Assembly: GCF_039583785.1 (NCBI RefSeq)
Contig: NZ_JAVKSG010000006.1
Location: 5,163 to 69,162 of the forward strand
Length of the DNA stretch: 64,000 nt
DNA from: Mycobacterium sp.
GTDB taxonomy: Bacteria; Actinomycetota; Actinomycetes; Mycobacteriales; Mycobacteriaceae
Direction of reading: 5' to 3'
A model generated the notes under the pieces. The model had not been told where the DNA came from. It made no database searches and saw nothing but the letters and a program-made list of their open reading frames with translations. Of this stretch, positions 1,539-57,637 are shown piece by piece. The position numbers were made by a program, and so were the translations under genes. How positions within the stretch are numbered: the stretch's first letter is position 1; each line of letters opens with the position of its first letter.

Positions 1539-2516
1539 ATGACCCGGTTTCTGGCACGTCGCGTGGCGAATTATGTGCTGCTGTTGGCGCTGGCCTCGTT
1601 TCTGACGTTCTGCCTGACGTCGGTGGCCTTCTCGCCGCTGGAAAGCCTGATGCAGCGCAGCCCGCGCCCGCCGCAGGCCGTGATCGACGCCAAAGCCGCC
1701 CAACTCGGACTGAACAAGCCCATCCCGCTGCGCTACGCGAACTGGGCGTCGCACGCGGTGCGCGGCGACTTCGGCGCCACCATCACCGGTCAACCCGTGT
1801 CAGGCGAACTGTGGCGCCGGATCGGCGTCAGCCTTCGGTTGCTGCTGATCGGGTCGGTAGCCGGGACGATCATCGGGGTACTGCTCGGCGCCTGGGGGGC
1901 GATCCGGCAGTACCGCATCAGCGATCGCGTCATCACGATGCTGTCGCTGCTGGTGCTCTCCGCCCCGACTTTCGTGATCGCCAACCTGCTGATTCTCGGG
2001 GCGCTGCGGGTGAACTGGGCGCTGGGCTGGCAGCTGTTCCAATACACCGGGGAAACCTCGCCGGCCCTGATCGACGGCACGGCGGCGCGATTCGTGGATC
2101 GCTTGCAGCACTTGGCTTTACCGACGCTCACGCTGACGCTGGGCACTGCGGCGGGGTTCAGCCGATACCAGCGCAACGCGATGCTCGACGTGCTTGGCCA
2201 GGATTTCATCCGGACCGCCCGCGCCAAGGGCCTGAGCCGCCGCCGCGCCCTGATCAAGCACGGGCTGCGGACGGCGCTGATCCCACTGGCGACGCTGTTC
2301 GCTTACGGCGTAGCCGGTTTGGTCACCGGAGCGGTGTTCGTCGAGAAAATCTTCGGCTGGCACGGCATGGGCGAATGGATGGTGCAAGGGGTGGCCACCC
2401 AGGACACCAACATCGTCGCGGCGATCACGGTGTTCGCCGGGGCGGTGGTGCTGCTGGCCGGTCTGCTGTCCGACTTCATCTACGCGGCGCTCGATCCCAG
2501 GGTGCGGGTGTCATGA
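1539..2516 (+). CDS. oppB: Peptide ABC transporter permease (Rv1283c-like)
   Basis: MTRFLARRVANY start; EAA-loop-like RTARAKGLSRRRALIKHGLR; several TM segments. Confidence 0.92.
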   Translation: MTRFLARRVANYVLLLALASFLTFCLTSVAFSPLESLMQRSPRPPQAVIDAKAAQLGLNKPIPLRYANWASHAVRGDFGATITGQPVSGELWRRIGVSLRLLLIGSVAGTIIGVLLGAWGAIRQYRISDRVITMLSLLVLSAPTFVIANLLILGALRVNWALGWQLFQYTGETSPALIDGTAARFVDRLQHLALPTLTLTLGTAAGFSRYQRNAMLDVLGQDFIRTARAKGLSRRRALIKHGLRTALIPLATLFAYGVAGLVTGAVFVEKIFGWHGMGEWMVQGVATQDTNIVAAITVFAGAVVLLAGLLSDFIYAALDPRVRVS

Positions 2517-3382
2517 CCGCTCTTGACGCTCCCGCATTCGCGTCCCGACGGACGTTGGTGCTGCGCCGCTTCCTGCGTCGCCGCTCGGCGGTGGCGTCGC
2601 TGCTGGTGCTGCTAGTGCTGTTCGTCGGCTGTTACACGTTGCCGTCGGTTCTGCCCTACTCCTACAGCGACCTCGACTTCAACGCGCTGCTGCAGCCGCC
2701 CAACGCCCGACACTGGTTGGGTACCAATGCCCTTGGTCAGGATCTGCTGGCCCAGACCTTGCGGGGTATGCAGAAGTCGATGCTGATCGGGGTCTGCGTG
2801 GCGGTCATCTCGACCACTATCGCCGCGACCGCGGGATCGATCTCCGGCTACTTCGGCGGTTGGCGCGATCGCGCGCTGATGTGGTTCGTCGACCTCATGC
2901 TGGTGGTGCCGGCGTTCCTGTTGATCCTGATCCTGACGCCGCGGACCAAGAGTTCCGGCAACGCGCTCATGCTGGTGCTGCTGCTGTCGGGATTCGGCTG
3001 GATGGTCAGCTCGCGCATGGTCCGCGGCATGACGATGAGCCTGCGCGAACGTGAATTCATCCGCGCAGCAAAGTATATGGGTGTACCCAGCTGGCGGATC
3101 ATCACCCACCATGTGGTGCCGAACGTGGCGTCGATCCTGATCATCGACACGGCGCTGAACGTCGCGGTGGCTATCCTCGCCGAGACCGGGCTGAGCTTTC
3201 TCGGCTTCGGCATTCAGCCCCCGGACGTGTCGCTGGGCACGCTGATCGCCGACGGCACCCAGTCCGCGACGACGTTCCCGTGGGTGTTCCTGTTTCCCGC
3301 TGGTGTGCTGGTGCTGATTTTGGTGTGCGCGAACGTGACCGGCGACGGTCTGCGCGACGCGCTGGATCCGGGGAGCCGATGA
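2513..3382 (+). CDS. oppC: Peptide ABC transporter permease (Rv1282c-like)
   Basis: ATGA overlap with oppB; [32 protein letters not shown] motifs. Confidence 0.92.
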
Positions 3383-5214
3383 GCCGGCTCCTGAAGGTCA
3401 CCGGCTTGGCCGTCACCTTCCCGACCGAAGGGCCCCCGCTGAAGGCATTGCGCGGCATCGACTTTCACGTCGACGCCGGCGAAGTCGTGGCGATCGTCGG
3501 CGAATCCGGTTCCGGCAAGTCGACGGCGGCGATGGCGGTGGTCTCGCTGCTTCCCGAATACGCCGACGTCCGCGGATCGGTGAAACTGCAGGGCAACGAG
3601 CTGGTCGGCCTTTCCGATGGCGCCATGTCGCGGTATCGCGGCAACACGATCGGCATGGTGTTCCAGGATCCGATGTCGGCGCTGACGCCCGTCTACACCG
3701 TCGGCGACCAGATCGCCGAGGCCATCGACGTGCACCAGCCGCTCATCGGGAAACGTGCGGCCCGTCAACGCGCGATCGAATTGCTGGAACTAGTCGGCAT
3801 AGTCGAGCCTGTACAGCGTGCCCGCGCCTTTCCGCACGAACTGTCCGGCGGCGAACGCCAGCGCGTGGTGATCGCGATCGCGATCGCCAACAACCCCGAC
3901 CTGTTGATCTGCGACGAGCCGACCACCGCGCTGGACGTCACCGTGCAGGCACAGATCCTCGAGGTGCTCAAGACCGCCCGCGATGTCACCGGGGCCGGCG
4001 TGCTGCTGATCACCCACGACCTGGGCGTGGTCGGCGAATTCGCCGACCGGGCACTGGTGATGTACGCCGGCCGGATCGTGGAATCGGCCGCCGTCAGCGA
4101 CGTCTACCGCGATCGCCGGATGCCCTACACCGTCGGGCTTTTGGGTTCGGTCCCGCGGTTGGACGCGCGGCAAGGCACCCGGCTGGTGCCGATCCCCGGC
4201 GCTCCCCCGTCGCTGACGGCTTTGGAGCCGGGCTGCCCGTTCGCGCCGCGCTGCCCGCTCGTCGTCGACGAATGCCGCACCGCGGAGCCGCCGCTGTCGC
4301 CGGTGGCGCCCGACCACGACGCGGCCTGTATCCGCACCGAGCACGTCGTGGGCCGCAGTGCCGCGGACGTGTACGGAATCAGCACCGAAGCGGAAGCTAC
4401 CGAGACGGGTGCACCGCCCGTCGTGGTGCGGGTCCGTGATCTGGTCAAGACCTACCCATTGACCAAGGGTGTGCTGTTCCGGCGCAATGTCGGCGAAGTC
4501 CGAGCGGTCGACGGCATCAGCTTCGAACTGCGTCAGGGGCGCACGCTAGCCATTGTGGGCGAGTCGGGTTCAGGAAAGTCGACCACGCTGCATGAAATCC
4601 TGGAGTTGGTTGCGCCGCAGTCGGGTTCGATCGACGTGCTGGGCAACGACGTCGCGGCGCTGAACTCGGCGAGTCGCCGGGCGCTGCGACGCGACATCCA
4701 GGTCATCTTCCAAGACCCGGCGGCGGCCCTGGATCCGCGGCTGCCGGTGTTCGAGCTGCTGGCCGAGCCGTTGCACGCCAACGGATTCAGCAAGGCCGAC
4801 ACCAGTGCGCGGGTGGCCGAGCTGCTCGACACCGTCGGGCTACCGCACGGCGATGCCAGCCGGTATCCGGCCGAGTTCTCCGGCGGGCAGAAGCAGCGGA
4901 TCGGGATCGCGCGCGCGCTGGCGTTGCGGCCCAAGATTCTCGCCCTCGACGAGCCGGTGTCCGCCCTGGACGTGTCGATTCAGGCCGGCATCCTCAACCT
5001 GCTGCTCGATCTACAGCAGGAGCTCGGCCTGTCCTATCTTTTTGTGTCGCATAACCTTTCGGTTGTCAAGCATCTGGCCCATGACGTCGTGGTGATGCTG
5101 CGCGGTGCCATCGTCGAACAGGGTGACAGCGACGAGATCTTCAACCGGCCACAGCACGAATACACCTGCCGCCTATTGGCCGCTGTGCCGCAACCGGATT
5201 CGGCCCATGGGTAG
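3379..5214 (+). CDS. oppD: Peptide ABC transporter ATPase with two fused NBDs (Rv1281c-like)
   Basis: Two GESGSGKS Walker A motifs, LSGGERQR and FSGGQKQR signatures, CPFAPRC motif; ATGA overlap with oppC. Confidence 0.95.
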
Positions 5215-6922
5215 CCCGATGACGAAGCGGTCCGTGAAACGGACCGAGGAGGAGTCGAGCCAGTGGCTCCGGCGGATACTGGCGATCGCGTTCGCTGCCA
5301 TGATCACGGCCGGTTGCACGTCGGGGGCCGACCTGGTGCTGTCCGGCCCCGCCACCGCCGTCGGCGCGACCAGCGACATCAACCCGCAGAACCCGGCGAC
5401 GCTACGCAATGGCGGCGATCTGAGATTGGCAATCACCGAATTCCCGCCCAACTTCAACACTTTGCACATCGACGGCAACTCCGCCGACGTCGACGGCATG
5501 CTGAAGGCCACCATGCCACGCGCGTTCGTGATCGGGCCGGACGGCTCCACCACCGTCGACACCGATTACTTCAGCAGCGTCGAACTCACCGGGACCAACC
5601 CGCAGGTGGTCACCTACACCATCAACCCGAAGGCGACCTGGTCCGACGGCACTCCACTCAGCTGGCAGGACATCGCCAGCCAGATCCACGCCACCAGTGG
5701 GGCCGACAAGAACTTCGCGATCGCCGGCACCAACGGCAGCGAGCGGGTCAAGTCGGTGACCCGCGGCGTCAACGACCAGCAGGCCGTGATCACCTTTGCC
5801 AAGCCGTACGCCGAGTGGCGCGGCATGTTCGCCGGCAACACCATGTTGCTGCCCAAGAGCAGCACCGCCACGCCCGAGGCGTTCAACACCGCGCAGCTGT
5901 CCGGCCCCGGGCCGTCGGGCGGCCCGTTCATCGTCTCCGCATTGGATCGGACCAAACAGCGGATTGTGTTGACCCGCAATCCCAAATGGTGGGGCGAGCG
6001 GGCGAGGCTGGATCGCATCACGTTTCTGGTGCTCGACGACGCGGCCAGACTGCCGGCGCTGCAGAACAAGGCCATCGACGCCACCGGTCTCTCCGGGCTG
6101 GACCAGATGACGATCGCCCGGCGCACCAAAGGCATTTCCATCCGCCGGGCGCCCACCCCGAGCTGGTATCACTTCACCTTCAACGGCGCGAAGGGATCGA
6201 TACTGGCCGACCCGGCGTTGCGCCGCGCGATCGCCGAAGGCATCGACCGGCAGAGCATTGCCGCCGTCACCCAGCACGGGCTAGTCAGCAATCCGCGGGC
6301 GCTGAACAACCACATCTATGTCGAAGGTCAACAGGGCTACCAGAACAACAGCGCCGTCGTCGCGTACAACCCGGAGAAGGCCAAGCGTGACCTTGACGCG
6401 CTGGGCTGGAAACTCGACCGACAGTTCCGGGAAAAAGACGGCAAGCCGTTGGTCGTGCGCGACTTGTTCTACGACGCGCAGACCAGCCGGCAATTCGGTC
6501 TGATCGCCCAACACAGCCTTGCCCAGATCGGCGTGCAGCTCGAGCTGATGGCCAAGGCCGGCAGCGGGTTCTTCACCAACTACATCAACGTCGGCGCCTT
6601 CGACATCGCCCAATTCGGGTGGATGGGCGACGCTTTCCCGCTGTCCGCGCTCACGCAGATCTACGCGTCCACCGGGGACAGCAATTTCGGCAAGATCGGC
6701 AGCCCCGAGATCGACGCGAAAATCGAGCAGACCCTCGAAGAACTCGACCCGGTCAAGGCGCGGGCGCTGGCCAACGACGTCGACACGCTGATCTGGGCCG
6801 AGGGCTTCAGCCTGCCGCTGGTCCAGTCCCCCGGCAACGTCGCCGTCAACAGCTCACTGGCCAACTTCGGCGCCCCCGGGCTAGCCGACCTGAACTACTC
6901 CGCGATCGGATTCATGCGTTGA
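5207..6922 (+). CDS. oppA: Peptide ABC transporter substrate-binding lipoprotein (Rv1280c-like)
   Basis: Lipobox-like TAGC, SBP family 5 motifs ([19 protein letters not shown]); fourth gene of the operon. Start could be ATG 5219. Confidence 0.9.
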
Positions 6923-43291: not shown

Positions 43292-43509
43292 GCGCGGCGT
43301 AACGGCAGCGCTATCCGGCACGAAGTCACATGGCGGATCGTCGACAAAGGGTTAGCCTTTATGAGGCGGTCGGTCGGAGCCGCAGACCGCCGGCGACGAT
43401 GCGGGCGGTCCCGGGGACGATCCGGACAATCAGACCTCCGGCACACGGATGTAGTGGCGAGCGTGACAGAGCGCTTTCACCGACACAGGAATCGAGGCGA
43501 GCAGCCGCT

Positions 43510-46500
43510 GTGAGCAGTACGAGTTCACCATTCGGACAGAACGAATGGCTGGTCGAGGAGATGTACCGCAAATTCCGCGACGACCCCTCCTCGGTCGATC
43601 CGAGCTGGCATGAATTTTTGGTCGACTACAACCCCGAATCGATCGGCGAAACTCCGGCTGAGGTACAGCCGACTCCCGCGCCGGCAGCAACTCCCCGGCC
43701 CGCGGTGACTCCCCCGCAGGCCGCACCCCTGCCCGCCGCGTCCGGCAACGGCGCGCCCAGCACCCCGCCGCCCGCGGCCCAGGCTCCGAGGGCACCGGCA
43801 CCCAAGCCGGCCGCCCCGTCACCCGCCGAGGGCGACGAGGTTCAGGTGCTGCGCGGCGCCGCCGCGGCCGTCGTCAAGAACATGTCGCAGTCGCTGGACC
43901 TGCCGACCGCGACCAGCGTGCGGGCCATCCCCGCCAAGCTGATGATCGACAACCGCGTCGTGATCAACAACCAGCTCAAACGCACCCGCGGCGGCAAGAT
44001 TTCGTTCACCCACATACTGGGCTACGCGCTGGTGCAGGCGCTCAAGAGCTTCCCGAACATGAACCGGCACTACGCTGAGATCGACGGCAAGCCGAACTCG
44101 GTCACCCCCGCGCACGTCAACCTGGGTCTGGCCATCGACCTGCAGGGCAAAGACGGCAAACGGTCGCTGGTGGTCGCCGGCATCAAACATTGCGAAACCA
44201 TGAGCTTCGGCCAGTTCGTCACCGCCTACGAAGACATCGTCAGACGGGCCCGCGACGGGAAGCTGACCGCCGAAGACTTTGCCGGCGTGACGATTTCGCT
44301 GACCAACCCGGGCACTATCGGCACCGTGCACTCGGTGCCGCGGCTGATGGCCGGTCAGGGTGCGATCATCGGTGTAGGCGCGTTGGAATACCCGGCCGAA
44401 CTCCAGGGCGCCAGCGCTGAACGCATTGCCGAGTTGGGCATCGGCAAGCTGATCACGCTGACCTCGACCTACGACCACCGCATCATCCAGGGTGCGGAGT
44501 CGGGCGACTTCCTGCGCACCATCCACGAACTGCTTCTCGCCGACGACTTCTGGGACGAGTTGTTCCGCGAGATGGGTGTGCCCTACCTGCCGATCCGGTG
44601 GAGCACCGACAACCCCGACTCGATCGTCGACAAGAACGCCCGCGTGATGGAGTTGGTCGCGGCCTACCGCAACCGCGGGCATCTGATGGCCGACATCGAT
44701 CCACTTCGGTTGGACAAAACCAGGTTTCGTAGCCACCCCGACCTCGAGGTGGTCACCCATGGGCTGACCCTGTGGGACCTCGACCGGGTGTTCAAGGTCA
44801 ACGGGTTCGGCGGCTGGGAGTACCGGAAGCTGCGTGACATCCTCGGTCTGCTGCGCGACGCGTACTGTCGGCACATCGGCGTCGAGTACACCCACATCCT
44901 TGATCCCGAGCAGCTGGCCTGGCTGGAAGAGCGCGTCGAGATCAAGCATGTCAAACCCACTGTGGCGCAGCAAAAGTACATTCTGAGCAAGCTCAACGCC
45001 GCCGAGGCGTTCGAGACCTTCCTGCAGACGAAATACGTCGGCCAGAAGCGGTTCTCGCTGGAGGGCGCCGAGAGCACCATCCCGCTGATGGACGCGGCAA
45101 TCGACCAGTGCGCCGAGCACGGACTCGACGAGGTGGTCATCGGCATGCCGCACCGGGGCCGGCTCAACGTGTTGGCCAACATCGTCGGTAAGCCGTACTC
45201 GCAGATCTTCAGCGAGTTCGAGGGCAACCTCAACCCGGCCCAGGCGCATGGGTCCGGCGACGTCAAGTACCACCTCGGCGCCACCGGCGCGTATATACAG
45301 ATGTTCGGCGACAACGACATTCAGGTCTCGCTGACCGCTAACCCGTCGCACCTGGAAGCTGTCGACCCGGTGCTCGAGGGTCTGGTCCGGGCCAAGCAGG
45401 ACCTGCTGGACAAGGGCGAGGGCGAACGCGGCAACTCGGTCGTACCGATCATGCTGCACGGCGACGCCGCCTTCGCCGGTCAGGGCGTGGTCGCCGAGAC
45501 GCTGAACCTGGCCAAGCTGCCCGGCTACCGCGTCGGCGGAACGATCCACATCATCGTCAACAACCAGATCGGCTTCACCACTGCGCCGGAGTACTCGCGG
45601 TCCAGCGAGTACTGCACCGACGTCGCGAAAATGATTGGGGCGCCGATCTTCCATGTCAACGGCGACGACCCGGAAGCCTGTGTGTGGGTGGCGAGGCTGG
45701 CCGTCGACTTCCGGCAGAAGTTCAAGAAGGACGTCGTCATCGACATGTTGTGTTACCGCCGCCGCGGGCACAACGAGGGCGACGACCCGTCGATGACGAA
45801 CCCATACATGTACGACGTCGTCGACGTCAAACGCGGCGTCCGCAAGACCTACACCGAAGCGCTGATCGGCCGTGGCGACATCTCGATGAAGGAGGCCGAG
45901 GACGCGCTACGCGACTACCAGGGCCAGTTGGAGCAAGTCTTCAACGACGTCCGCGAACTGGAGAAGCACGGCGTGCAGGCGAGCATGTCGGTGGAGTCCA
46001 ACCAGATGCTCGCCGCCGGCCTGGACACCGCGGTCGACAAGACGCTGCTGGCCCGGATCGGTGACGCATTCCTTGAGCTGCCAGCGGGATTCGCCGCCCA
46101 CCCGCGGGTCACTCCGGTGCTGGAGAAGCGCCGGGAGATGGCCTACGAGGGCAAGATCGACTGGGCCTTCGGTGAGCTGCTGGCGCTGGGTTCACTGGTG
46201 GCCGAAGGCAAATTGATCCGGCTTTCAGGGCAGGACACCCGTCGTGGCACCTTCTCCCAGCGGCATTCGGTGATCATCGACCGCCAGACCGGCGCCGAGT
46301 TCACCCCCTTGCAGCTGCTGACGGTCGACAAGGACGGCAACCCGACCGGCGGAAACTTCATGGTGTTCGACTCGCCACTGTCGGAGTACGCCGCCGTCGG
46401 CTTCGAATACGGCTACACGGTCGGCAACCCGGACGCAGTGGTGTTGTGGGAAGGCCAGTTCGGCGACTTCGTCAACGGGGCGCAGTCGATCATCGACGAG

Positions 46501-47214
46501 TTCATCAGCTCCGGTGAAGCCAAGTGGGGCCAGCTGTCCAGCGTGGTGCTGTTGCTGCCGCACGGACATGAGGGCCAAGGCCCGGACCACACCTCCGGGC
46601 GCATCGAGCGCTTCCTGCAGTTGTGGGCGGAAGGCTCGATGACGATCGCGGTGCCGTCCACGCCGGCCAACTACTTCCACCTGCTGCGCCGCCATGCCCT
46701 CGACGGGGTGAAGCGTCCGCTGATCGTCTTTACCCCGAAGTCGATGCTGCGCAACAAGGCCGCGGTCAGCGACATCAAGGAATTCACCGAAAATCGATTC
46801 CGCTCGGTGCTCGAAGAGCCCACCTACACCGAGGGCGTCGGCGATCGCGACAAGGCCACTCGAATGCTGTTGACCAGCGGCAAGATCTACTACGAGCTGG
46901 CTGCCCGCAAGGCCAAGGACAACCGGGACGACATCGCGATCGTGCGCATCGAGCAACTGGCGCCGCTGCCGTTCCACCGGCTCACCGAGACCCTGGAGCG
47001 CTACCCGAACATCAACCAGTACTTCTGGGTGCAGGAAGAGCCGGCCAACCAGGGCGCCTGGCCCCGGTTCGGTCTGGAGCTGCCCGAGCTCTTCGGAGAC
47101 AAACTGACTGGCATCAAACGGATTTCACGTCGTGCCATGTCGGCGCCGTCGTCGGGCTCGTCGAAGGTGCACGCCGTCGAACAGCAGGACATCATCGACC
47201 TGGCGTTCCGCTGA
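43510..47214 (+). CDS. kgd: Multifunctional 2-oxoglutarate decarboxylase/dehydrogenase (E2-E1 fusion)
   Basis: GTG start [19 protein letters not shown]; [43 protein letters not shown]. Confidence 0.97.
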
Positions 47215-47480
47215 TCGCGGCATGCTCGTGCTGCAGGTGGTGGCTGGTCATGCGCCCTTGATCCGGCAGTGCGGGAACGCGTTCGCTTCGTTCCAGATCT
47301 CGCGGCTTCGACGTGACCGTCGACTGCGGCCCGGCAGCCAATGCTGGTGCTGTCACCCCAGCGTGCTCCCGAACGCCGGTGGCGCTTCGATACGCACGCC
47401 ACCAGTGGGACGAGTCAACCGCAATCAAATCCGGCAAGGATCGGCGGCACCAACCGCGTAGTTTGTCACCCCTGCGCGTC

Positions 47481-47498
47481 TGTCATACTTCCGCGATG
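47481..47498 (+). promoter_or_regulatory. Leaderless-type extended -10 promoter of methyltransferase 1
   Basis: TGT-CATACT-TCCGCG-ATG. Confidence 0.6.
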
Positions 47499-48332
47499 GC
47501 CACCGCGAACCGCCTGACCCGTCGCCCACTAGTTCATCGGCTGGTGATAAACCCGTTCGTCTTCCGGGTGATATTCACGTCATTTGCCACCACCCGGTTC
47601 GCCTCTCAGACACGTCTGCTCGGCGCCGATGACTGGTTGTTCTTCAACTACGGATACGAAGAAGACCCACCAATGGGTATCCCGCTGGACGAGGCCGATG
47701 AACCGCATCGGTACTTCATCCAGCTCTACCACCGCACCGCGACCCAGGTAGACTTGGCCGGCAAGAAGGTGCTGGAGTGCAGCTGCGGCCACGGCGGCGG
47801 GGCCTCATATCTGGTGCGCACGGCACACCCGGCCTCTTACACCGGACTGGACCTGAACCCGGCCGGCATCGAGTTCGCCAAGAACCGGCACCACCTGGCC
47901 AACCTGGATTTCGTGGAGGGCAATGCCCAGGCTCTGCCGTTCACCGACGCGTCGTTCGACGTGCTGGTCAACGTGGAGGCCTCGCACCTCTACCCCGATG
48001 TCCCGAAATTCCTGTCCGAAGTGGCACGGGTGCTGCGTCCGGGCGGGCATTTCCTCTACACCGACTTCCGTCCGCGGTCCGAAGTCGCCGAGTGGGAAGC
48101 GGCGCTGGCCAACTCGTCGCTGCGGCAGATCTCCATGTCGGTCATCGACCAGAATGTGCTGCGCGGCAACGAGAAGAACGCGCCTCGCAAGCACGAGCGG
48201 ATCAGCCGGCACGGCGCGGCAATCAGCCGGATCTTTGCCCGCTACGCCAGCGACATGACCGACTGGGCGTTCAACGGCGCGCTGCGCGGCGGCGAGTACA
48301 CCTACCGCGTGTACTTGTTCACCAAGGACTAG
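47496..48332 (+). CDS. SAM-dependent lipid O-methyltransferase, Rv2952/Fmt family (copy 1)
   Basis: [46 protein letters not shown]-terminal YLFTKD. Confidence 0.88.
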   Translation: MATANRLTRRPLVHRLVINPFVFRVIFTSFATTRFASQTRLLGADDWLFFNYGYEEDPPMGIPLDEADEPHRYFIQLYHRTATQVDLAGKKVLECSCGHGGGASYLVRTAHPASYTGLDLNPAGIEFAKNRHHLANLDFVEGNAQALPFTDASFDVLVNVEASHLYPDVPKFLSEVARVLRPGGHFLYTDFRPRSEVAEWEAALANSSLRQISMSVIDQNVLRGNEKNAPRKHERISRHGAAISRIFARYASDMTDWAFNGALRGGEYTYRVYLFTKD

Positions 48333-48382
48333 AAGCGCCCCGGTACGCTGAAAACTGCTGCTAGACAAATAGAAGGGGTGAC

Positions 48383-49750
48383 ATGGCAACGGCGACGACC
48401 GACCCGGTGCGGCTGCCGCCCGCGCTGCGGTTGCCCAAGCTCGTCACGAGCGTGATTTTCCTGACGTCGCTGCAGTACTCCGTCGCGCCATGGCTGAGTC
48501 GGCACTACGGTGGCCCGTTCACGATCAACCTGCCGCTCTTCGGTAAGACGATCGTCATCCACGACCGCGACATCGTCAAAGAGGTGTACAGCACCAGCTT
48601 CGATCTGATCGAACGCCCGACCAAGATTCTCGGGCAGGCGTTCGGGCCCGGCTCGACCTTCAGCCTGCTCGGCAAGGAGCACTCTGAGCGGCGAAAGCTG
48701 GTGCTGCCCAACTTCTCTGGCAAACGGGTGAAGAATTACGAGCGCATCGTCGAAGACGAGGTGCTGCGCGAAACCGCGAACTGGCCGCAAGGCCAGGAGT
48801 TCGAGACGCTGGAGACGATGACCCGGCTGACGCTCAACGCGATCATGCGGGCCACGTTCGGTGAGCGCGCCGACGCCTTGGACGAACTTCGCATCGTGAT
48901 CCCGCCGCTGATCACACTAGGCTCGCTGATGCAGCGGATGCCGCTGATCGTGCGACGCGAATACGGTCGCTGGAGCCCCGGCGGCAAGCTGGCGGGTTAT
49001 CGGCGGCGGTTCGACGAGGTGATCAACGAACTCATCGCCGAAGCGCGCGCCGAGTCGTCACTGGACGGTCGCACCGACATGCTCGCGCTGCTGCTGCAGG
49101 CCCGCTACGAAGACGGCCGACCAATATCGGATCGCCACATCGCCGACGAGCTACTCACACTCGTCGCGGCCGGCCACGAGACCACCGCTTCGCAGTTGGC
49201 GTGGGCCGTCGAGCGCTTGCGCCGCCATCCCGACGTGATGACGCGACTCGCCGAGGAAGTCGACGCGGGCGGATCGGACCTGCGACAGGCGACGATCTAC
49301 GAAATCCAGCGCGTCCGGCCGACCATCGCGGCGTCGCTGCGCACCACCAAGACCAAAGTTCGGGTGGGCGATTGGGTTCTCCCCCCGGACACCGCGATCA
49401 TGGTCGATTTCCAGCTCGCGCACGAGTCGGACGTCAACTACACCGACCCGGAGGCGTTCAACCCGGACCGATTCATCGGCAACCCGCCGCCGTCGTTCCG
49501 CTGGGTGCCGTTCGGCGGCGGCATAAACCGTTGCGTGGGAGCGTCTTTCGCTCACATGGAGATGGACGTCACGCTGCGGACGCTGTTTCGTGAATTCCGC
49601 TTCACGCCAACCGATGTCCCGGACGAGAGCCGCAACTTTCGCGGCGTGGCCATCGCCCCGGGCAAGGGTGCACGCGCGGTGGTCTACCGTCGCACCGACG
49701 CCGCGGCGAAAGATCGGGACGCGGTCTCGGTCTCCGACCGCAGCAGCTGA
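48383..49750 (+). CDS. Cytochrome P450, CYP138-like
   Basis: VRLPPA, ETANWPQG, AGHETTA, EIQR, PFGGGINRCVGA. Confidence 0.9.
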   Translation: MATATTDPVRLPPALRLPKLVTSVIFLTSLQYSVAPWLSRHYGGPFTINLPLFGKTIVIHDRDIVKEVYSTSFDLIERPTKILGQAFGPGSTFSLLGKEHSERRKLVLPNFSGKRVKNYERIVEDEVLRETANWPQGQEFETLETMTRLTLNAIMRATFGERADALDELRIVIPPLITLGSLMQRMPLIVRREYGRWSPGGKLAGYRRRFDEVINELIAEARAESSLDGRTDMLALLLQARYEDGRPISDRHIADELLTLVAAGHETTASQLAWAVERLRRHPDVMTRLAEEVDAGGSDLRQATIYEIQRVRPTIAASLRTTKTKVRVGDWVLPPDTAIMVDFQLAHESDVNYTDPEAFNPDRFIGNPPPSFRWVPFGGGINRCVGASFAHMEMDVTLRTLFREFRFTPTDVPDESRNFRGVAIAPGKGARAVVYRRTDAAAKDRDAVSVSDRSS

Positions 49751-49764
49751 CTCGAACGCCTGCC

Positions 49765-49783
49765 TGGCATACTTCCCGGCATG
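49765..49783 (+). promoter_or_regulatory. Leaderless-type extended -10 promoter of methyltransferase 2
   Basis: TGG-CATACT-TCCCGGC-ATG. Confidence 0.6.
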
Positions 49784-50587
49784 CCCACGACTACCGAACG
49801 CGTCACCGACATCGGCTACCGCGGCTACAAGGCCTTCATCAACAAGATCTGGTACCCGTTCCTGACGCGTCGGCTCGACACGCAGGACGTCACCTTCCTC
49901 AACTACGGGTATGAGGGTGACCCCCCACTGAACCTTCCGCTGGACGAGAACGACGCGGCCAACCGGTACTCGATCAACCTCTACAACCAGGTCGCCTCTC
50001 AGATCGACCTCGCCGGCAAAAAGGTGCTGGAGTGCAGCTGCGGCCACGGCGGCGGCGCGTCGTACATCGTGCGGACGTTCAAGCCGGCCGAATACACCGG
50101 ACTGGACTACAACCCGGACGGTGTCGCCTACTGCACGGAGCACCACAAGCTGCCCGGCCTGAATTTCGTACACGGCAATGCCGAGGACCTGCCCTTCGGC
50201 GACAACTCGTTCGACGCCGTCGTGAATGTCGAAGCCTCACATGCCTATCCGACGCTCTCGAAGTTCCTGTCCGAGGTGGCCCGAGTCCTGAAGCCGGGCG
50301 GAAGCCTGCTCTACGCCGACTTCCGCGGCCGCCCCGAATTCCCGGTGTGGAAGGGCGCTCTCGAAGCGATGCCGCTGCGCCAGGTTTCCATGCGGGTCAT
50401 CAACGACGGCGTGATCCGCTCACTGGACGCCAGCGCGCAGCACAAGCTCGACCTGATCAGCGCGCAGCTGCCGAAGTTGTTCCGGCCGTTCGGTCGCCAC
50501 TTCGCCGGCGTACCCGGTACCGGGATCTACAACGTCATCTCCAGCGGTGGCGCGGAGTACCGCATCTACCAATTCATCAAGGACTGA
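49781..50587 (+). CDS. SAM-dependent lipid O-methyltransferase, Rv2952/Fmt family (copy 2)
   Basis: [49 protein letters not shown]. Confidence 0.88.
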   Translation: MPTTTERVTDIGYRGYKAFINKIWYPFLTRRLDTQDVTFLNYGYEGDPPLNLPLDENDAANRYSINLYNQVASQIDLAGKKVLECSCGHGGGASYIVRTFKPAEYTGLDYNPDGVAYCTEHHKLPGLNFVHGNAEDLPFGDNSFDAVVNVEASHAYPTLSKFLSEVARVLKPGGSLLYADFRGRPEFPVWKGALEAMPLRQVSMRVINDGVIRSLDASAQHKLDLISAQLPKLFRPFGRHFAGVPGTGIYNVISSGGAEYRIYQFIKD

Positions 50588-50594
50588 TCGACGG

Positions 50595-52088
50595 TCAGGC
50601 TATCGCGTAGTCCGACATCGGGAATCGGTCCTGCTCCTTCACGGCGCTGCGCACCGATGTCGGACGAAACAGCGGCGCCTCGCCCTTGCCGGTGTGGTTG
50701 CGGAACCAGTAGGACCGCGAGCCAACACAATTGCCGAGCTCGAATGCGGAATCTTTCATCAGCGTGGTCATCCGCTCGAGAAAGCGGGCGTTGGCGTCTT
50801 CGGTGACCTCGAAGGTACGAGCGCCGCACTGCCGCAGCTCACCGAACAGTCGTTCCATGTGCTTCATCTGATATTCCACGGTGTTGAACCAGGACAGGCC
50901 CACCCACGCGTACGGGCTGGCCATCGACAGGAAGTTCGGGAAGCCCGGCATCGAAATACCCTCGTAGGCCTGGAATTGCGTCTCGCGCCACCACTTTCCG
51001 AGGTTCTTGCCGTCGCGTCCGATCACTTCGATCGCGGGCAGGTTGGCCTCCCAGACGTCGAATCCGGTTGCCAGCACCAAGGTGTCGATCAAACGCTTGG
51101 TGCCGTCGTTGGCGACGATGCCGTCGACCTCGATCCGATCGATGCCGTTGGTCTCCAGGTGCACGTGGGATTTGGTGAACGCTCGGTAGAAGTCGTTGGA
51201 TATCGTCGGCCGCTTGCAGCCGAAGTCGAAGTCGGGGTCCAGCTTTCGGGACAGCTCACGGTTGCGCACCAGGAGCAGCCGGTACAGCCTGGAGAACTGC
51301 GAGATGCCCTTGTTGAAAACCTTGAAGTAGCGGTACTTCCACATCGTGAGGACCATGGAGAGTTCGAGGATCGCGTCGGTGTAGGAGCGCAGGAGTCGCT
51401 GAGTGAGCGGGAACCGCGCGAAAACGCGCTGCGCCGCCGGGAAGAACTTCACGTCTAATTTCGGCAGCACCCAGATCGGGGTGCGCTGATACACCGTGAG
51501 CTCGGCGACTTCCTTGGCCAATTCGGGAACGACCTGCACGCCGGTGGAGCCGGTTCCGATCACGGCGGCGCGGCGGCCGGTCGGCGAGAAGTCGTCATCC
51601 CACTGAGCGGTGTGGATGATGCGGCCGCCGAACGTCTCGATGCCGGGGATGTCCGGCATCTTGGGTTGACACAGAAAGCCGGTGGCGGCGATCAGGAACT
51701 GGGTGGTCAACGTCTCGCCGCCGACCAACGTAAGGCGCCACACCTGGGCGTCTTCGTCCCAGCGGGCGCCCTCGACGCAGGTGTTGAACCGCATGAAACG
51801 GCGGACGTCGTACTTCTCGGCCACGTGCACGGCGTAGTTCTTGAGTTCGGAACCCGGCGCGTACATCCGCGACCAGTACGGGTTCGGCTCGAAACGGTAG
51901 GAGAAGGTGGGCGACGGTTGATCGACCGAAAGACCGGGATAGTGGTTGACGTGCCACGTTCCACCCAGGTCGTCTTCGCGGTCGACGATCAGAACGTTCT
52001 CGTACCCCAAGCTCTTCAGTTGGATCGCAGCGCCGATTCCGCCGAAACCCGCCCCCACGATGATCACATCGAACTGCTGGTCATCCAT
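50595..52088 (-). CDS. Baeyer-Villiger-type flavin monooxygenase
   Basis: GAGFGG, GGTWHVNHYPG, type I BVMO fingerprint FGGRIIHTAQWD, GTGSTG, ATGF. Confidence 0.92.
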   Translation of the reverse strand: MDDQQFDVIIVGAGFGGIGAAIQLKSLGYENVLIVDREDDLGGTWHVNHYPGLSVDQPSPTFSYRFEPNPYWSRMYAPGSELKNYAVHVAEKYDVRRFMRFNTCVEGARWDEDAQVWRLTLVGGETLTTQFLIAATGFLCQPKMPDIPGIETFGGRIIHTAQWDDDFSPTGRRAAVIGTGSTGVQVVPELAKEVAELTVYQRTPIWVLPKLDVKFFPAAQRVFARFPLTQRLLRSYTDAILELSMVLTMWKYRYFKVFNKGISQFSRLYRLLLVRNRELSRKLDPDFDFGCKRPTISNDFYRAFTKSHVHLETNGIDRIEVDGIVANDGTKRLIDTLVLATGFDVWEANLPAIEVIGRDGKNLGKWWRETQFQAYEGISMPGFPNFLSMASPYAWVGLSWFNTVEYQMKHMERLFGELRQCGARTFEVTEDANARFLERMTTLMKDSAFELGNCVGSRSYWFRNHTGKGEAPLFRPTSVRSAVKEQDRFPMSDYAIA

Positions 52089-52462
52089 AAGCTAAAGGGT
52101 AGCTTCCTACAGCACCAACGGTGAAACGGCGCCGAACCGTTCGCGCTGTTCGGCGGCTCGGGGCCCGGCCTGCGACGGTGTCAAGGGCGCCCAGCTCGCT
52201 ACCGGTGTGATGATTCCGTAGTCTTCCACCCGGGAGGGTCAACCGGCGGACACGGCATGTGTACTGTCTAATGGGATCTGGCTGTTGGCGGGGCACAACT
52301 CAGCTGGACACGAGCCACCCGGGTTACCTGAGATGTTCACGAGAATGAGGCCGTTCCGTACCAGGTCTTTCATTCTCGCCCGGTAGTCTCATGTTCCGAC
52401 TATGCCCATCGATCGCATGTGCGCGAGCCGCATGCCGAACTGGTCCGGAGGGAGGGCTCAGT

Positions 52463-53557
52463 TTGCCGGTCACGCTGGCGATCTTCGTCGTGCTGGGCAC
52501 CGTCCTCTCGGTGAGCCTGCTGCTAGTGCTCGCCTTTTTCGGCGTGGTCAGGCGCATGAAGCGCAACATGGATCTCAGTGCCGACACCGACTACGCCGCC
52601 ACCCTGACGTCACTGTCGGAAGCTTCGGTGCGTCACTTCAATCCCTACACCGACGTCGACTGGGAAGCGCCGATCTTCTCGGTCACCGAGAACGACCCGC
52701 GCTGGGTGCTCTCCACGTCGGACCCGCTGGGAGGTCATCCCTGGTACCAGGCCCAACCGCTGGACACTCGGGTCACGATCGGCATGTGGCGCCAAGCCAA
52801 CATGGCGAAAGTCGGTACGCAGTTCGAGGGCGTTTTGGTCCGCGGCCTGTTGCACTACGCATTCTGGGTGCCGAACGGCTCCCCCGAGTACCGCTACTGC
52901 CTGCACGAATCCATCGAGGAGTGCAGCCACAGCCTGATGTTCCAGGAGATCGTCAACCGCATCGGCGTCGACGTTCCCGGCATGCCTATCTGGATGCGGG
53001 TGCTCTCGCCGCTGATTCCGCTCTACGCGGGTCCGTTACCGAACGCGTTCTTCTTCGGGGTCTTGGCCGGCGAAGTGCCGTTCGACTACCTGCAGACCAA
53101 CTTGCTGCGCGAACCCGATCCTGGCGCGCTGCACCCGATCATGAGGGACCTGTTCGCGATTCACGTCGCCGAAGAAGCCCGCCACATCTCCTTTGCCCAC
53201 GAGTACCTGCAACGGCGGGTTCCGCGGCTGACGTGGTTCAGCCGATTCTGGCTGTCGCTCTACGTGCCGTTCGTGATGCGGATGCTGGGCCAGGCAATGG
53301 TGGTGCCGCCGCGGCGGTTCTTCCGTCAGTTCGACATCCCCCGCATAGTGCGCAGAGAATTGTATTCCGGTGCACCGGACTCGCGTCAGACGCTACGGAA
53401 CATGTTCGGCGATGTCCGCATGCTGTGCGACGAACTGGGGTTGATGAACCCGTTCGCTCTGGTGATGTGGCGTATTTGCCGGATCAGCGGTCCCGCATCG
53501 CGTTACCGCAGTGAGCCGCCGCGCACCAACGTTTCGGTTTCGGCGAACGCCGCTTAA
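52463..53557 (+). CDS. AurF-family di-iron oxygenase (Rv0885-like) with hydrophobic N-terminal extension
   Basis: FNPYTDVDW, FE, EECSH, LAGE, HVAEEARH iron-ligand pattern; TTG 52463 follows GGAGGG. Alternative starts 52391 and 52556. Confidence 0.85.
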   Translation: MPVTLAIFVVLGTVLSVSLLLVLAFFGVVRRMKRNMDLSADTDYAATLTSLSEASVRHFNPYTDVDWEAPIFSVTENDPRWVLSTSDPLGGHPWYQAQPLDTRVTIGMWRQANMAKVGTQFEGVLVRGLLHYAFWVPNGSPEYRYCLHESIEECSHSLMFQEIVNRIGVDVPGMPIWMRVLSPLIPLYAGPLPNAFFFGVLAGEVPFDYLQTNLLREPDPGALHPIMRDLFAIHVAEEARHISFAHEYLQRRVPRLTWFSRFWLSLYVPFVMRMLGQAMVVPPRRFFRQFDIPRIVRRELYSGAPDSRQTLRNMFGDVRMLCDELGLMNPFALVMWRICRISGPASRYRSEPPRTNVSVSANAA

Positions 53558-53675
53558 ATCCTTTGCCGCATAACTCATCAGGCGTTCGCGCGTGGTGTCG
53601 GGGCATCGACGAGTTCGGGTCGTCGAGTGATGTCCGCGTCACAAAGGCAGGCCACCACAAGCACAGCCGACGCTG

Positions 53676-53693
53676 TGCGATACTTCCTGCATG
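53676..53693 (+). promoter_or_regulatory. Leaderless-type extended -10 promoter of methyltransferase 3
   Basis: TGC-GATACT-TCCTGC-ATG. Confidence 0.55.
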
Positions 53694-54527
53694 GTTCGTA
53701 GCCCTTCATTGGACAACGTCGGCGCAAGTCTCGTCTACCGCATCGGTTCGACGGCGACGTACAAGAAACTCTTCCGGTACTGGTACCCGCTGATGACCAA
53801 GCGGCTGCACAACCAGGACGACGTCCAGTTCCTGAACTGGGGCTACGAGGAGGACCCGCCACTGGGCCTGCCGCTCGACCCCGCCGACGAGCCCAACCGA
53901 TACAGCATTCAGCTTTACCACCAGACCGCCACCCAGGACGGCGTCGACCTTGCCGGCAAAAAGGTTTTGGAGTGCAGCTCCGGCCACGGCGGTGGCGCCT
54001 CTTACCTGTCCCGGACGCTGAAGCCGGCGTCCTACACCGGCCTCGACTTCAATGCGGCGGGTGTCAAATTTTGCAACGAGCGGCACAAGGTGCCGGGTCT
54101 GAGCTTCGTGCACGGCGACGCCGAAAACCTGCCGTTCCCGGACGAATCCTTCGACGCGGTGATCAACGTCGAGGCCTCGCACATCTACCCGCACTTCGAC
54201 CGCTTCCTCAGCGAGGTCAACCGGGTGCTGCGGCCCGGCGGGCACTTTCTGCACGTGGACTTCCGCAACCGAGACAATTTCGGGAACTGGGAGTCGGATC
54301 TGGCGAACTCGGGTCTGCGGCAGGTCTCGTCGCGGGTCATCAACAACGAGGTCCTGCGCGGCCTCAAGAAGAACTCGGCTCGGTCGAACGAGATCATCGA
54401 CACTCGCCTGCCGGCATTCCTGCGCAAGTTCGGCCGCGAGTTTGCCGTGGTCGACGGTTCGTGGTTCTACAACGACCTCGAGCGCGGTGAAATCGACTAC
54501 CGCGCATACCATCTCACGAAGGACTGA
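53691..54527 (+). CDS. SAM-dependent lipid O-methyltransferase, Rv2952/Fmt family (copy 3, closest to Rv2952)
   Basis: [56 protein letters not shown]. Confidence 0.9.
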
Positions 54528-54585
54528 CGCCGTTGAAGGGCGATTGCCCTTGCGTCGGTAGGTCTGCACGAGGGGGTTTGTCCGC

Positions 54586-55902
54586 ATGACGCTGGCTCGC
54601 AGGCTGCGATTTCGCGCCAGCCTGATGAAGGTCGGTGTCGACGGGGCACTCGGGGTGGCACGGGACAAGGCCACCTCCTACGGCTACTCGTTGACCGGCC
54701 GGGAAACCGCGCCCGCCACCGACTTCGACCCGTTCTCGGCAGAAGTCATGCACGACCCGTATCCGGGCTACCAGTCCCTGCTGAACGGCGACGACGTTCC
54801 AGGAGTCTGGTACAACCGCAAACGCGGCATCTGGATCATCGCGGGCTACGACGACGTCCGAAAGGCGTTGCGCGACAACGAACAATTGTCGTCAGCACAG
54901 AGCCAGAGCCGATTCCGGGTATACCTGCCGTCGATGAACGCCGCCGACCCGCCTGCCCACACCCGGCTGCGCAAGTTCGTCTCGCGCGCTTTTACCGCGC
55001 GGGCGATGACGGCCTGGCAGAAGAACATCAACGAGGTCGCCGACGAGCTGGTCGACACCGTGATCGCCCAACGTTACACCGAGGCCGTCAACGGCCTGGC
55101 CAAGCCGCTACCGACCCGGTTGATCGCCAGGATGCTCGGCATTCCGCAGCACGATCAGCCGCAGTTTGTGGCATGGTCGGACGACATGGTGGCCGGTGCC
55201 TTCGCGCCGCTGACCCCGCACGGCGTGCGGCTGTCCGCCCGCTCGGGTAGCGCGACCGCGGCGATGCGCCGCAGCCTCGACCCGCTGATCGCGCAGCGAC
55301 GCCGCACTCCCGGCGACGACCTGATCTCGATGATGACGCCGGCCGACGCCGACGATGTGCTCACCGACGACGAAATCTTCTGGAGTGCCGCAATGTTGAT
55401 CGGCGCCGGCAGCGAAACGACGACGAACATGTTGTCCGGTTTGCTGTTGACGCTGGCCCAGCGGCCCGAACTGTACGCGCGGCTGCGTGCGCACCCGGAG
55501 TTGATTCCGGCCGCCGTCGAAGAGCAGCTGCGAATGGGCTCGCCGGTGCAGGGCTTCTACCGCACCGCGACGTGCGATTACACCGTGGGGGCCACCACGA
55601 TTCCGGCCGGCGCGCGGGTGCTGCTGCTGTTCGCCGCCGCCAACCGCGACCCGCGCCGCTACCCCGACCCGGACACCTTCGACCTCGATCGCAATCCGAC
55701 CGACCACCTCGCATTCGGCGGCGGCGTCCATTACTGCCTGGGTGTACCGCTGACCCGGCTGGAGGGCGCCCGGGTGTTCTCCCAACTGCTGCCCCGGGTC
55801 GAACAGATTCGCCTGACCGGTGAGTACCGCTATCTCGACAACCCGACAATGCGTGGGCTGGAACATCTTCCGCTGGAGTTGGTCCCCGCCAAGGGTATGT
55901 GA
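54586..55902 (+). CDS. Cytochrome P450 (bacterial class I type; family not assigned)
   Basis: DPYPGY, DPPAHTRLR, GAGSETTTN, EEQLR, FGGGVHYCLG. Confidence 0.92.
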   Translation: MTLARRLRFRASLMKVGVDGALGVARDKATSYGYSLTGRETAPATDFDPFSAEVMHDPYPGYQSLLNGDDVPGVWYNRKRGIWIIAGYDDVRKALRDNEQLSSAQSQSRFRVYLPSMNAADPPAHTRLRKFVSRAFTARAMTAWQKNINEVADELVDTVIAQRYTEAVNGLAKPLPTRLIARMLGIPQHDQPQFVAWSDDMVAGAFAPLTPHGVRLSARSGSATAAMRRSLDPLIAQRRRTPGDDLISMMTPADADDVLTDDEIFWSAAMLIGAGSETTTNMLSGLLLTLAQRPELYARLRAHPELIPAAVEEQLRMGSPVQGFYRTATCDYTVGATTIPAGARVLLLFAAANRDPRRYPDPDTFDLDRNPTDHLAFGGGVHYCLGVPLTRLEGARVFSQLLPRVEQIRLTGEYRYLDNPTMRGLEHLPLELVPAKGM

Positions 55903-55912
55903 TCGGCGAGGC

Positions 55913-56698
55913 TCAAAGCCCGCGGCTCACGAGCCAGCTGTCGATGCGTTCGGCGACCGCGGCCCAGCCGGGTTCGAGCATCATGTTGTGACCCATGTCG
56001 GGGAAGAACTCGGCCTGGGTGCCGTAAGCGCGGGCGGTGGCGAGGATTTCCTTGCGGGTGTGCGCGCCGTCCTCGTCGGCTCCGAGCACCAGGACCGGCG
56101 CGGTCACCTTCTTGGGTCGCGGCAGCCGCAGCAACAGACTGTCGATGCCGATGCGCGAGCTGTCCTCTTGCAGGCGGGCCGCGTACTTTTCGACGTCGGC
56201 TTCCGGCGTGTGCGTCGAGAAGAACCGCTCCCGCGCCAGCTGCGGCGGATTGATGTACGGCAGTGCTTTGCCAGTGATCGTCATCTTGACGAAATCCGAC
56301 GGGCGTTGCCGTATCCACCGCAACGCATTTCCGAGGTTTCCCTGCGGAGGAACGGACGTCATCAAAACGCCGGCCGGAGCGTCGTGCGACTCCAGATACT
56401 TCTGCACGATCAGACCGCCCATGGAGTGACCGATGACCACCGGGGAGCTGGGCAGCGTGTCGGCGACCGAGCTGACGTCGGCGACATAGTCGGCGACCGA
56501 GCAGGCCCACAGCGGCTTGTCAGTCAGGCTTTCGCCGTGGCCGCGAAAGCTCAACGCGACTGCGCAGTAATCCTTGTCGGCGAAGTAGCTGAGGAAGTTC
56601 TCGTCCCAACACCAAGCGGCATGCCAGACCCCGTGGACAAAAAGCAGCGGGGCGGGATGCGCCTCGCTGACACTGCCCTTCTCGATCACCTCTAGCAC
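55913..56698 (-). CDS. Alpha/beta hydrolase (esterase/lysophospholipase-like)
   Basis: FVHG, FRGHGES, GHSMGG nucleophile, GADED, GHNMM. Confidence 0.9.
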   Translation of the reverse strand: MLEVIEKGSVSEAHPAPLLFVHGVWHAAWCWDENFLSYFADKDYCAVALSFRGHGESLTDKPLWACSVADYVADVSSVADTLPSSPVVIGHSMGGLIVQKYLESHDAPAGVLMTSVPPQGNLGNALRWIRQRPSDFVKMTITGKALPYINPPQLARERFFSTHTPEADVEKYAARLQEDSSRIGIDSLLLRLPRPKKVTAPVLVLGADEDGAHTRKEILATARAYGTQAEFFPDMGHNMMLEPGWAAVAERIDSWLVSRGL

Positions 56699-56766
56699 CG
56701 CGATAGCCTATCTGTCCGCTTTACCGGAACTCAGCAGTGTCCAAGAATCCGTATATCGCCATGTCG

Positions 56767-57576
56767 TCAATGGAGTTTCCTCTCTGCGCGCCACGCAAGC
56801 AGCGGCAGCAGTTGCTCGTGCGGCGCAAAACGACAACACGCCGCGACCAGTCGGTTCATCCGACCCGGAACGACGCGGCACTTGTCTGCGGCCAATCCGT
56901 CGATCGCGGCGCGGGCGACCTGGTCGGCGGACTTCCACATGAAGCCAGGCAGGGTGGCGGCCCGCTCACCGGGGTCGAAGCCGGCCACCACATCGAACCC
57001 GGTGTCGACCGGTCCGGGACACAACGCGCTTGCCACGACTCCGGTTCCGCCCAACTCGCTGCGCAGACTTTCGGTGTAGGACAACACAAATGCCTTCGCC
57101 GCACCGTATGTCGCATGCCCGGGCAGCGGGTAGAGCCCGGCCAGCGAGGACACGTTCAGCACCGCGCCGCGGCCCCGCTCGACCATACCCGGCAGAAACC
57201 GGCTGCACAGGTCCACCACGGCGGCGACGTCGACCTCGACGAGGTTGAGTTGTTGCTCCGGAATCGATTTCGCTACCGGAGCACGCACCGCCAGGCCGGC
57301 GTTGTTGATCAGGATGTCCGGTGTCACGCCCAACGCGGCGACCCGGCCCGGAAGCGCCGCGCGGTCCGCCCTGCTCGACAAGTCAGCGGTCAGGACGTGC
57401 GCCTTGCAATTCAACCCGTCGGCGAGTGCCTGCAGGCGGTCGGTCCGCCGAGCCACCAGCACCAGCTGATGCCCACGTCGCGCAAGCTCGAGCGCAATGG
57501 CCTCACCAATGCCCGACGAGGCGCCGGTGACGACTGCCACGCGGTTTGCCGACGGTTCCGGGAGAGCCACGCGCAC
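56767..57576 (-). CDS. Short-chain dehydrogenase/reductase
   Basis: TGASSGIG, INNAG, NVSS, YGAAK. Confidence 0.92.
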   Translation of the reverse strand: MRVALPEPSANRVAVVTGASSGIGEAIALELARRGHQLVLVARRTDRLQALADGLNCKAHVLTADLSSRADRAALPGRVAALGVTPDILINNAGLAVRAPVAKSIPEQQLNLVEVDVAAVVDLCSRFLPGMVERGRGAVLNVSSLAGLYPLPGHATYGAAKAFVLSYTESLRSELGGTGVVASALCPGPVDTGFDVVAGFDPGERAATLPGFMWKSADQVARAAIDGLAADKCRVVPGRMNRLVAACCRFAPHEQLLPLLAWRAERKLH

Positions 57577-57637
57577 TGACCTTACCCGCGTTAGTCACAC
57601 CGGCAACACGAAACGACCGATCATGCCGCGACGCAGA

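Follow-up and report, generated by a model that had tools for sequence, protein, structure and literature searches.

Mycobacterial promoters have been described as having a -10 element of the form TANNNT or ANNNT 6–13 bp 5′ of the transcription start site and no -35 element, with a TGN sequence raising their activity, and about 25–40% of mycobacterial transcripts are leaderless (PMC3898074, PMC6448022). For Mycobacterium marinum, the -10 element was reported to be YANNNT, G-14 supports minimal promoters, and mRNAs with leaders of 0–3 nt are still translated (PMC8022548). Among the methyltransferases of these bacteria, M. tuberculosis Rv2952 (phthiotriol/phenolphthiotriol dimycocerosate O-methyltransferase) and Mtf2/fmt of the glycopeptidolipid (GPL) locus belong to the protein family considered here.

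The present analysis concerns a 64,000-nt stretch (the window) of contig NZ_JAVKSG010000006.1 from a Mycobacterium sp. assembly (4.3 Mb, 212 contigs, 65.9% G+C; labelled G000), the closest named relatives of which are soil metagenome-assembled genomes (MAGs) and M. shimoidei. The window contains three genes of the Rv2952 and Mtf2/fmt family, MT1, MT2 and MT3, which differ from the described members in being clustered with P450s, a flavin monooxygenase and an AurF-like oxygenase near kgd and not in the phthiocerol dimycocerosate (PDIM) or GPL locus. Each of the three is preceded by a short promoter-like sequence that, as judged from the DNA, would be an extended -10 promoter giving a leaderless mRNA. 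This reading had been proposed in a preliminary description of the window, and the exact geometry of the sites, the lack of a Shine–Dalgarno (SD) sequence and the conservation reported below all speak for it; we assign it a probability of somewhat less than 80%.

Promoter-like sites at the three start codons

The sites were found as previously described, reading TGTCATACTTCCGCGATG for MT1 (47481–47498), TGGCATACTTCCCGGCATG for MT2 (49765–49783) and TGCGATACTTCCTGCATG for MT3 (53676–53693). The sequence ATACTTCC is present in three copies on the two strands of the window, compared to 0.38 expected from shuffled sequences, and a scan of the whole genome detected 22 copies in 4.3 Mb, of which only those of MT1, MT2 and MT3 have an ATG 3–4 nt further on. 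Because MT1, MT2 and MT3 are paralogues, these three cannot be counted as independent occurrences. Counted from the A of the ATG, the -10 hexamers were located at -12 to -7 (MT1 and MT3) or -13 to -8 (MT2), and CATACT, CATACT and GATACT end 6, 7 and 6 nt before the ATG of MT1, MT2 and MT3, respectively. One base before the hexamer, all three sites contain a TG (TGT, TGG and TGC), as is characteristic of an extended -10. If transcription is assumed to start at the ATG, the A-11 and T-7 (ANNNT) of SigA/SigB-type -10 elements are present at the three sites as well; the T-12 of the full TANNNT form is absent (C, C and G), which places the sites in the VANNNT/YANNNT subclass.

In the A-11/T-7 spacing and in the lack of both a -35 element and an SD, the sites resemble the leaderless genes of mycobacteria (Cortes 2013, PMC3898074; Shell 2015, PMC4633059; Martini 2019, PMC6448022; M. 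marinum, PMC8022548), except that -12 is C or G here, while T is preferred there, and that the start sites are predicted here. From what PMC3898074 and PMC8022548 relate of the work of Agarwal & Tyagi (2003) and Zhu et al., they also resemble extended -10 or "-10 plus G-14" promoters, in that T-15 and G-14 abut the hexamer and no -35 is found. In contrast, TGN was present before only 7% of the TANNNT elements in published M. tuberculosis counts, whereas most of the TGn found here accompanies hexamers without T-12. The sites also differ from published extended -10 promoters in that the entire element is fixed in one gene family.

None of the tetramers AGGA, GGAG, GAGG, AAGG and GGGG was found at -20 to -4 of MT1, MT2 or MT3, in agreement with the earlier remark that these genes have no SD, and an SD-like tetramer is present before both P450a and P450b, the P450 genes that follow MT1 and MT3. 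The possibility that the motif substitutes for an SD was rejected, as ATACTTCC is presumably not complementary to the anti-SD tail CCUCC. The motif was also rejected as coding sequence, as MT2 and MT3 do not have an upstream in-frame start.

The DNA around the motif could not be aligned among the three sites, and the MT1, MT2 and MT3 proteins are only 50–55% identical. These two findings argue against chance more strongly than the number of copies does, and the bases common to the three sites are accordingly held by selection and do not result from recent copying.

Further comparison was made with a syntenic relative, G019, in which about 3.5 kb, including an open reading frame (ORF) of 1000 aa on the opposite strand, is inserted between kgd and the MT1 orthologue (L040, contig C350, reverse complement of about 1915–5400), in the place corresponding to 47218–47481 of the window. 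Everything 5′ of the MT1 promoter has been replaced in G019 by rearrangement, and homology to the window resumes exactly at 47481, which is -15 of MT1. The G019 orthologues of MT1, MT2 and MT3 read TGTCATACTgccccgATG, TGACATACTgcctggcATG and TGCGATACTtccaggATG, respectively; two of these three sites read ATACTGCC, with G at -6.

By their reading frames and alignments, we regard the annotated starts of MT1, MT2 and MT3 as the true starts. The ATG of MT2 is the first in-frame start after a stop at 49748, and that of MT3 the first after a stop at 53628. Three in-frame alternatives are found upstream of MT1 (TTG at 47463, GTG at 47379 and GTG at 47313), but the fact that homology to G019 extends no further than -15 speaks for the annotated ATG. 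The MT1 orthologues have ATG (42) or GTG (9) at the same position as MT1. The N-terminus MVRSPS of MT3 is kept through synonymous changes in G000, G019 and G152.

Conservation across the methyltransferase family

When 105 nt around the extrapolated start was searched in loci from Mycobacterium and Mycolicibacter, TGNNATACT was present in 76 of 79, its genome-wide frequency being 6.5e-6 per nt. Upstream regions of the MT1 type (49 distinct sequences) were aligned by the start codon that the protein alignment gives, without use of the motif, and the promoter core was kept in 45–46 of them (T-15 45, G-14 45, A-11 45, T-10 46, A-9 46, C-8 46 and T-7 45). In these regions, information peaks at -15 (T), -14 (G), -13 (A/T) and -11 to -7 (ATACT); it is weaker at -5/-4 (CC) and -2/-1 (CG) and close to nil at most positions between -35 and -16. 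T was never found at -12. All fetched loci together contain 106 family genes, and 91 of these have TGn followed by VATACT, then 5–9 nt and an in-frame ATG or GTG.

A midpoint-rooted FastTree phylogeny of 100 non-identical proteins placed MT1, MT2 and MT3 in three separate deep clades, each of which also contains orthologues from other species, and the motif was found in nearly every clade. Sixteen loci orthologous to MT3 contain TGCGATACT, 6 nt and ATG. In M. shimoidei DSM 44152, an MT1-type gene (L064) is preceded by TGCAATACT-N6-ATG and an MT3-type gene (L109) by TGCCATACT-N6-GTG, and Mycolicibacter species carry TGACATACT or TGAGATACT. The source genome itself has seven family members, and those on contigs C7 and C40 show the arrangements TGGCATACT-N7-GTG and TGGCATACT-N6-ATG. 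Two tandem paralogues on contig C99 (6569–8310; L006 and L007) do not contain TGNNATACT; before the GTG of one of the two there is a GAGGAGG SD, so some family members appear to have switched to leadered expression. Besides, a 3.5-kb contig labelled as a Solirubrobacteraceae MAG (JAXDGO010000123.1; L104) was found to contain an MT3-type gene whose TGCGATACTtcctgcATG is identical to that of the mycobacterial orthologues; this is probably a mis-binned mycobacterial contig. The unpublished genome G031 entered the comparison only as a weak entry, and none of the conclusions draws on it.

The position of MT1, MT2 and MT3 in three deep clades, each with orthologues elsewhere, led us to reject a recent local triplication of the methyltransferases. 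It also makes it highly improbable that the common sequence is a functionless, neutral relic of gene duplication, as could be imagined for paralogues: the adjacent non-coding bases and the N-terminal codons cannot be aligned, yet seven promoter positions are fixed, and the conservation profile contradicts neutrality.

The comparison also showed where conservation ends. The 8-mer of the three sites had been called invariant, but -6 in the 49 MT1-type regions was T in 23, G in 18, C in 6 and A in 2, in addition to the G of the two G019 sites. The TCC beyond the hexamer had been suggested as a common regulatory site, and this is not supported, because T at -6 switches to G in G019 and in many orthologues; other paralogues have discriminators such as gaccgct, cgcggc, ccgccc and cacccg. 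The CC at -5/-4 is kept in 43 of the 49 MT1-type sequences and not across the family.

The promoter class in the source genome

For ORFs of at least 150 codons in the source genome, A-11/T-7 was found before the first start in 528 cases, compared to about 250 (range about 160–310) at other offsets, and the usual leaderless-type hexamers were TAGGCT, TACCGT, TAGGGT and similar. By these counts, leaderless geometry is common in this genome, as it is in M. tuberculosis, M. smegmatis and M. marinum.

The genome contains 56 copies of TGNNATACT, of which 10 (18%) lie 6–8 nt before a long-ORF start, defined as an ATG or GTG opening an ORF of at least 100 codons with a short upstream open frame. In a control with 29 permutations of the core ATACT, only 25 of 2438 copies (1.0%) showed this spacing. 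Six of the 10 well-spaced copies precede genes that do not encode methyltransferases: Pfam matches identified a TetR/EthR-like regulator, an FAD-linked oxidase, a major facilitator superfamily (MFS) transporter and an M20 peptidase, and a histidine phosphatase gene has the same arrangement. In these genes, the domains begin near the predicted N-terminus. The presence of the 9-mer at the same spacing before unrelated genes indicates that TGn-VATACT is a promoter form in general use rather than one that marks the methyltransferase family.

Among the leaderless-type candidates (A-11/T-7 before the first start of a long ORF), those with T-12 contained TGn in 5 of 197 cases; with any other base at -12, the count was 54 of 331 (Fisher p = 2e-7). 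At control offsets, TGn was present in 1–12%. This distribution fits a role of TGn in compensating for a missing T-12, and it suggests that minimal promoters come in two kinds, one with TANNNT and the other with TGn-VANNNT. The MT1, MT2 and MT3 sites belong to the TGn-VANNNT class, in which 37 different inner triplets were found among 80 candidates in the source genome.

These results bear on whether TGNVATACT, with or without the CC after it, could serve mainly to bind a dedicated regulator, or else an alternative sigma factor, co-ordinating this methyltransferase family, and only overlap or resemble a -10. Such a site would account for ATACT being nearly invariant across paralogues of 50–60% protein identity while the class tolerates 37 inner triplets and NNN showed no preferred bases in the study of Cortes et al. 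(PMC3898074), and also for the CC at -5/-4 of the MT1-type sequences. We nevertheless consider it unlikely, as the 9-mer is non-palindromic and has no conserved partner half-site, the flanks beyond -15 are not conserved across clades, -6 and the discriminator vary freely, and the same 9-mer precedes unrelated genes at the same spacing. Recognition of TGn is moreover a property of group 1/2 sigma factors. A search for a conserved -35/-10 pair of extracytoplasmic function (ECF) or other alternative sigma factors (GGAAC...GTT, GGTTT...GGGTAT) found no position from -40 to -16 kept across clades.

Layout and predicted expression of the cluster

The features of the cluster are listed in Table 1. 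All three methyltransferases score above the curated cut-off (300 bits) of the NCBIfam family NF045823 (Rv2952 type), and NF045825 (Mtf2) is a close second match for all of them. Given the different genomic context, the equivalog name of NF045823 is not to be read as the substrate.

Table 1. Position of the genes and predicted promoter cores in the methyltransferase cluster of the window.
Feature	Position	Strand	Remarks
kgd/sucA	43330–47214		Upstream neighbour of the methyltransferase cluster
MT1 promoter core (predicted)	47481–47495	+	TGT (-15 to -13), CATACT (-12 to -7), discriminator TCCGCG (-6 to -1)
MT1, 278 aa	47496–48332	+	Rv2952/Mtf2-family S-adenosylmethionine (SAM) methyltransferase; Pfam Methyltransf_11; NF045823 361.9 bits
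P450a, 455 aa	48383–49750	+	SD-like GAAGGGG
MT2 promoter core (predicted)	49765–49780	+	TGG, CATACT, 7-nt discriminator TCCCGGC; within the 30-nt gap after the P450a stop
MT2, 268 aa	49781–50587	+	Rv2952/Mtf2 family; NF045823 365.6 bits
Flavin monooxygenase	50595–52088	-	Convergent with MT2
AurF-like di-iron oxygenase	52391–53557	+	5′ of MT3
MT3 promoter core (predicted)	53676–53690	+	TGC, GATACT, discriminator TCCTGC
MT3, 278 aa	53691–54527	+	Rv2952/Mtf2 family; NF045823 435.2 bits
P450b, 438 aa	54586–55902	+	SD-like GAGGGGG

Among the neighbouring genes, the flavin monooxygenase (minus strand, start at 52088) has TACCCT (hexamer 52096–52101), 7 nt and ATG, without a clear SD, which resembles the typical leaderless start of the TANNNT kind. 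For the AurF-like gene, more than one start is conceivable (52375–52404), as TAGTCT lies 1 nt before the ATG at 52391 and 12 nt before the ATG at 52402. Downstream of P450b, the plus-strand ORFs at 55820–56695 and 56737–57579 showed no match in Pfam or NCBIfam and are overlapped by long minus-strand ORFs (55913–56698 and 56767–57576); the minus strand is probably the coding one at 55900–57600. No Rfam family was matched in 46500–56500 at E <= 0.1. A scan of 47000–56200 for Escherichia coli-style -35/-10 promoters and terminators detected one unrelated promoter match and fewer terminators than in shuffled sequences. The source assembly is rated 0.23% contaminated, and on contigs C120, C151 and C53 the copies of ATACTTCC have AT-rich surroundings, unlike the 66% G+C genome; these small contigs suggest a small amount of foreign DNA in the assembly.

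We propose that each methyltransferase gene would be transcribed from a minimal promoter of its own. This promoter, recognised by a sigma factor of group 1/2 (SigA or SigB type), would have no conserved -35 and be composed of an extended -10 (T-15 G-14), a VATACT hexamer with A-11 and T-7 as its key bases, and a C-rich discriminator of 6–7 nt. RNA polymerase would start at the A of the ATG or within 2 nt of it, that is, 7 nt (MT1 and MT3) or 6–8 nt (MT2) past the hexamer. The resulting mRNA would have neither a 5′ leader nor an SD and would be translated in the leaderless way common in mycobacteria. P450a and P450b, which begin 50–58 nt past the methyltransferase stops, would be the second genes on the MT1 and MT3 transcripts, and the upstream part of the MT2 promoter would lie inside the 3′ end of P450a. 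In this scheme, we infer where transcription starts, which sigma factor acts and how the operons are composed from the DNA together with published genome-wide rules.

The preliminary description had divided the cluster into the units MT1-P450a, MT2 and MT3-P450b. This division is plausible, as both P450 genes have an SD-like sequence of their own, and P450a is probably co-transcribed with MT1 and P450b with MT3. A duplication of the whole methyltransferase-P450 unit, which had also been suggested, is contradicted by the low identity of P450a and P450b (26% over 194 residues). The part of that proposal that stands is that the methyltransferase gene and its promoter of about 15 bp are common to the copies; the P450 is not, and the duplication is old. 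Being contained entirely in the 15 bp next to the start codon, the promoter would have travelled with the gene during the expansion of the family, and nearly all members would have kept it.

The three genes could also be expressed mainly from leadered or polycistronic mRNAs that arise at upstream promoters, by read-through from kgd or from MT1-P450a, and be translated without an SD, the motif then not being a working promoter. About half of the leadered mycobacterial genes do not have a canonical SD (PMC6448022), MT2 begins 30 nt past P450a, which leaves no room for a terminator, and the start sites of Rv2952 in M. tuberculosis were mapped to -13 and -162 from the annotated start (Shell et al., 2015, PMC4633059 supplement) and not to the start codon, as is predicted for the genes studied here. 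Such read-through leaves unexplained why a -10-like element is fixed 6–8 nt from the start in more than 90 genes whose upstream neighbours are unrelated, and why homology between G019 and the window resumes at -15 after a rearrangement; it is therefore quite unlikely as the main mode of expression. The start-site data of Shell 2015, which place a start site upstream of Rv2952 at 3304428 of H37Rv, contained nothing for MSMEG_0391-0393, and the supplements of the M. marinum study no match for Rv2952 or its product name.

Several observations nevertheless weigh against leaderless extended -10 promoters before MT1, MT2 and MT3. Besides the absence of T at -12, VANNNT promoters are on average weaker than TANNNT promoters (PMC6448022). 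The start sites of Rv2952 count here as well: leaderless expression is not universal in the family, and Rv2952 is not strictly leaderless as annotated. For MT2, the 7-nt spacer places a C at the preferred start position, which makes a leader of 1–2 nt possible, and this gene may in addition be read through from the MT1 promoter. Finally, the invariance of the inner TAC exceeds what the class needs, as judged from its 37 inner triplets.

This family-wide near-invariance of ATACT is the remaining puzzle. The simplest account is that selection for strength acts on every base of a promoter that has neither a -35 nor T-12. It is also conceivable, though improbable, that TG-N-V-ATACT is a family-specific element controlling the envelope-lipid methyltransferases as a group; its near-invariance spans deep paralogues, Mycobacterium as well as Mycolicibacter, and unrelated upstream neighbours. 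Such control could work through a variant -10 to which a particular sigma factor, for instance SigB, binds preferentially, or through the site of an open-complex factor.

The promoter type itself is ordinary for mycobacteria and is unusual only in being kept by almost a whole gene family, and no new mechanism is revealed. For this uncharacterised lipid-tailoring cluster, the analysis fixes the start codons of the methyltransferase genes and predicts a division into three transcription units. A consequence of the proposed leaderless layout is that a duplicated or transferred gene would bring its own expression signal with it, and this family would have kept that signal through old duplications.

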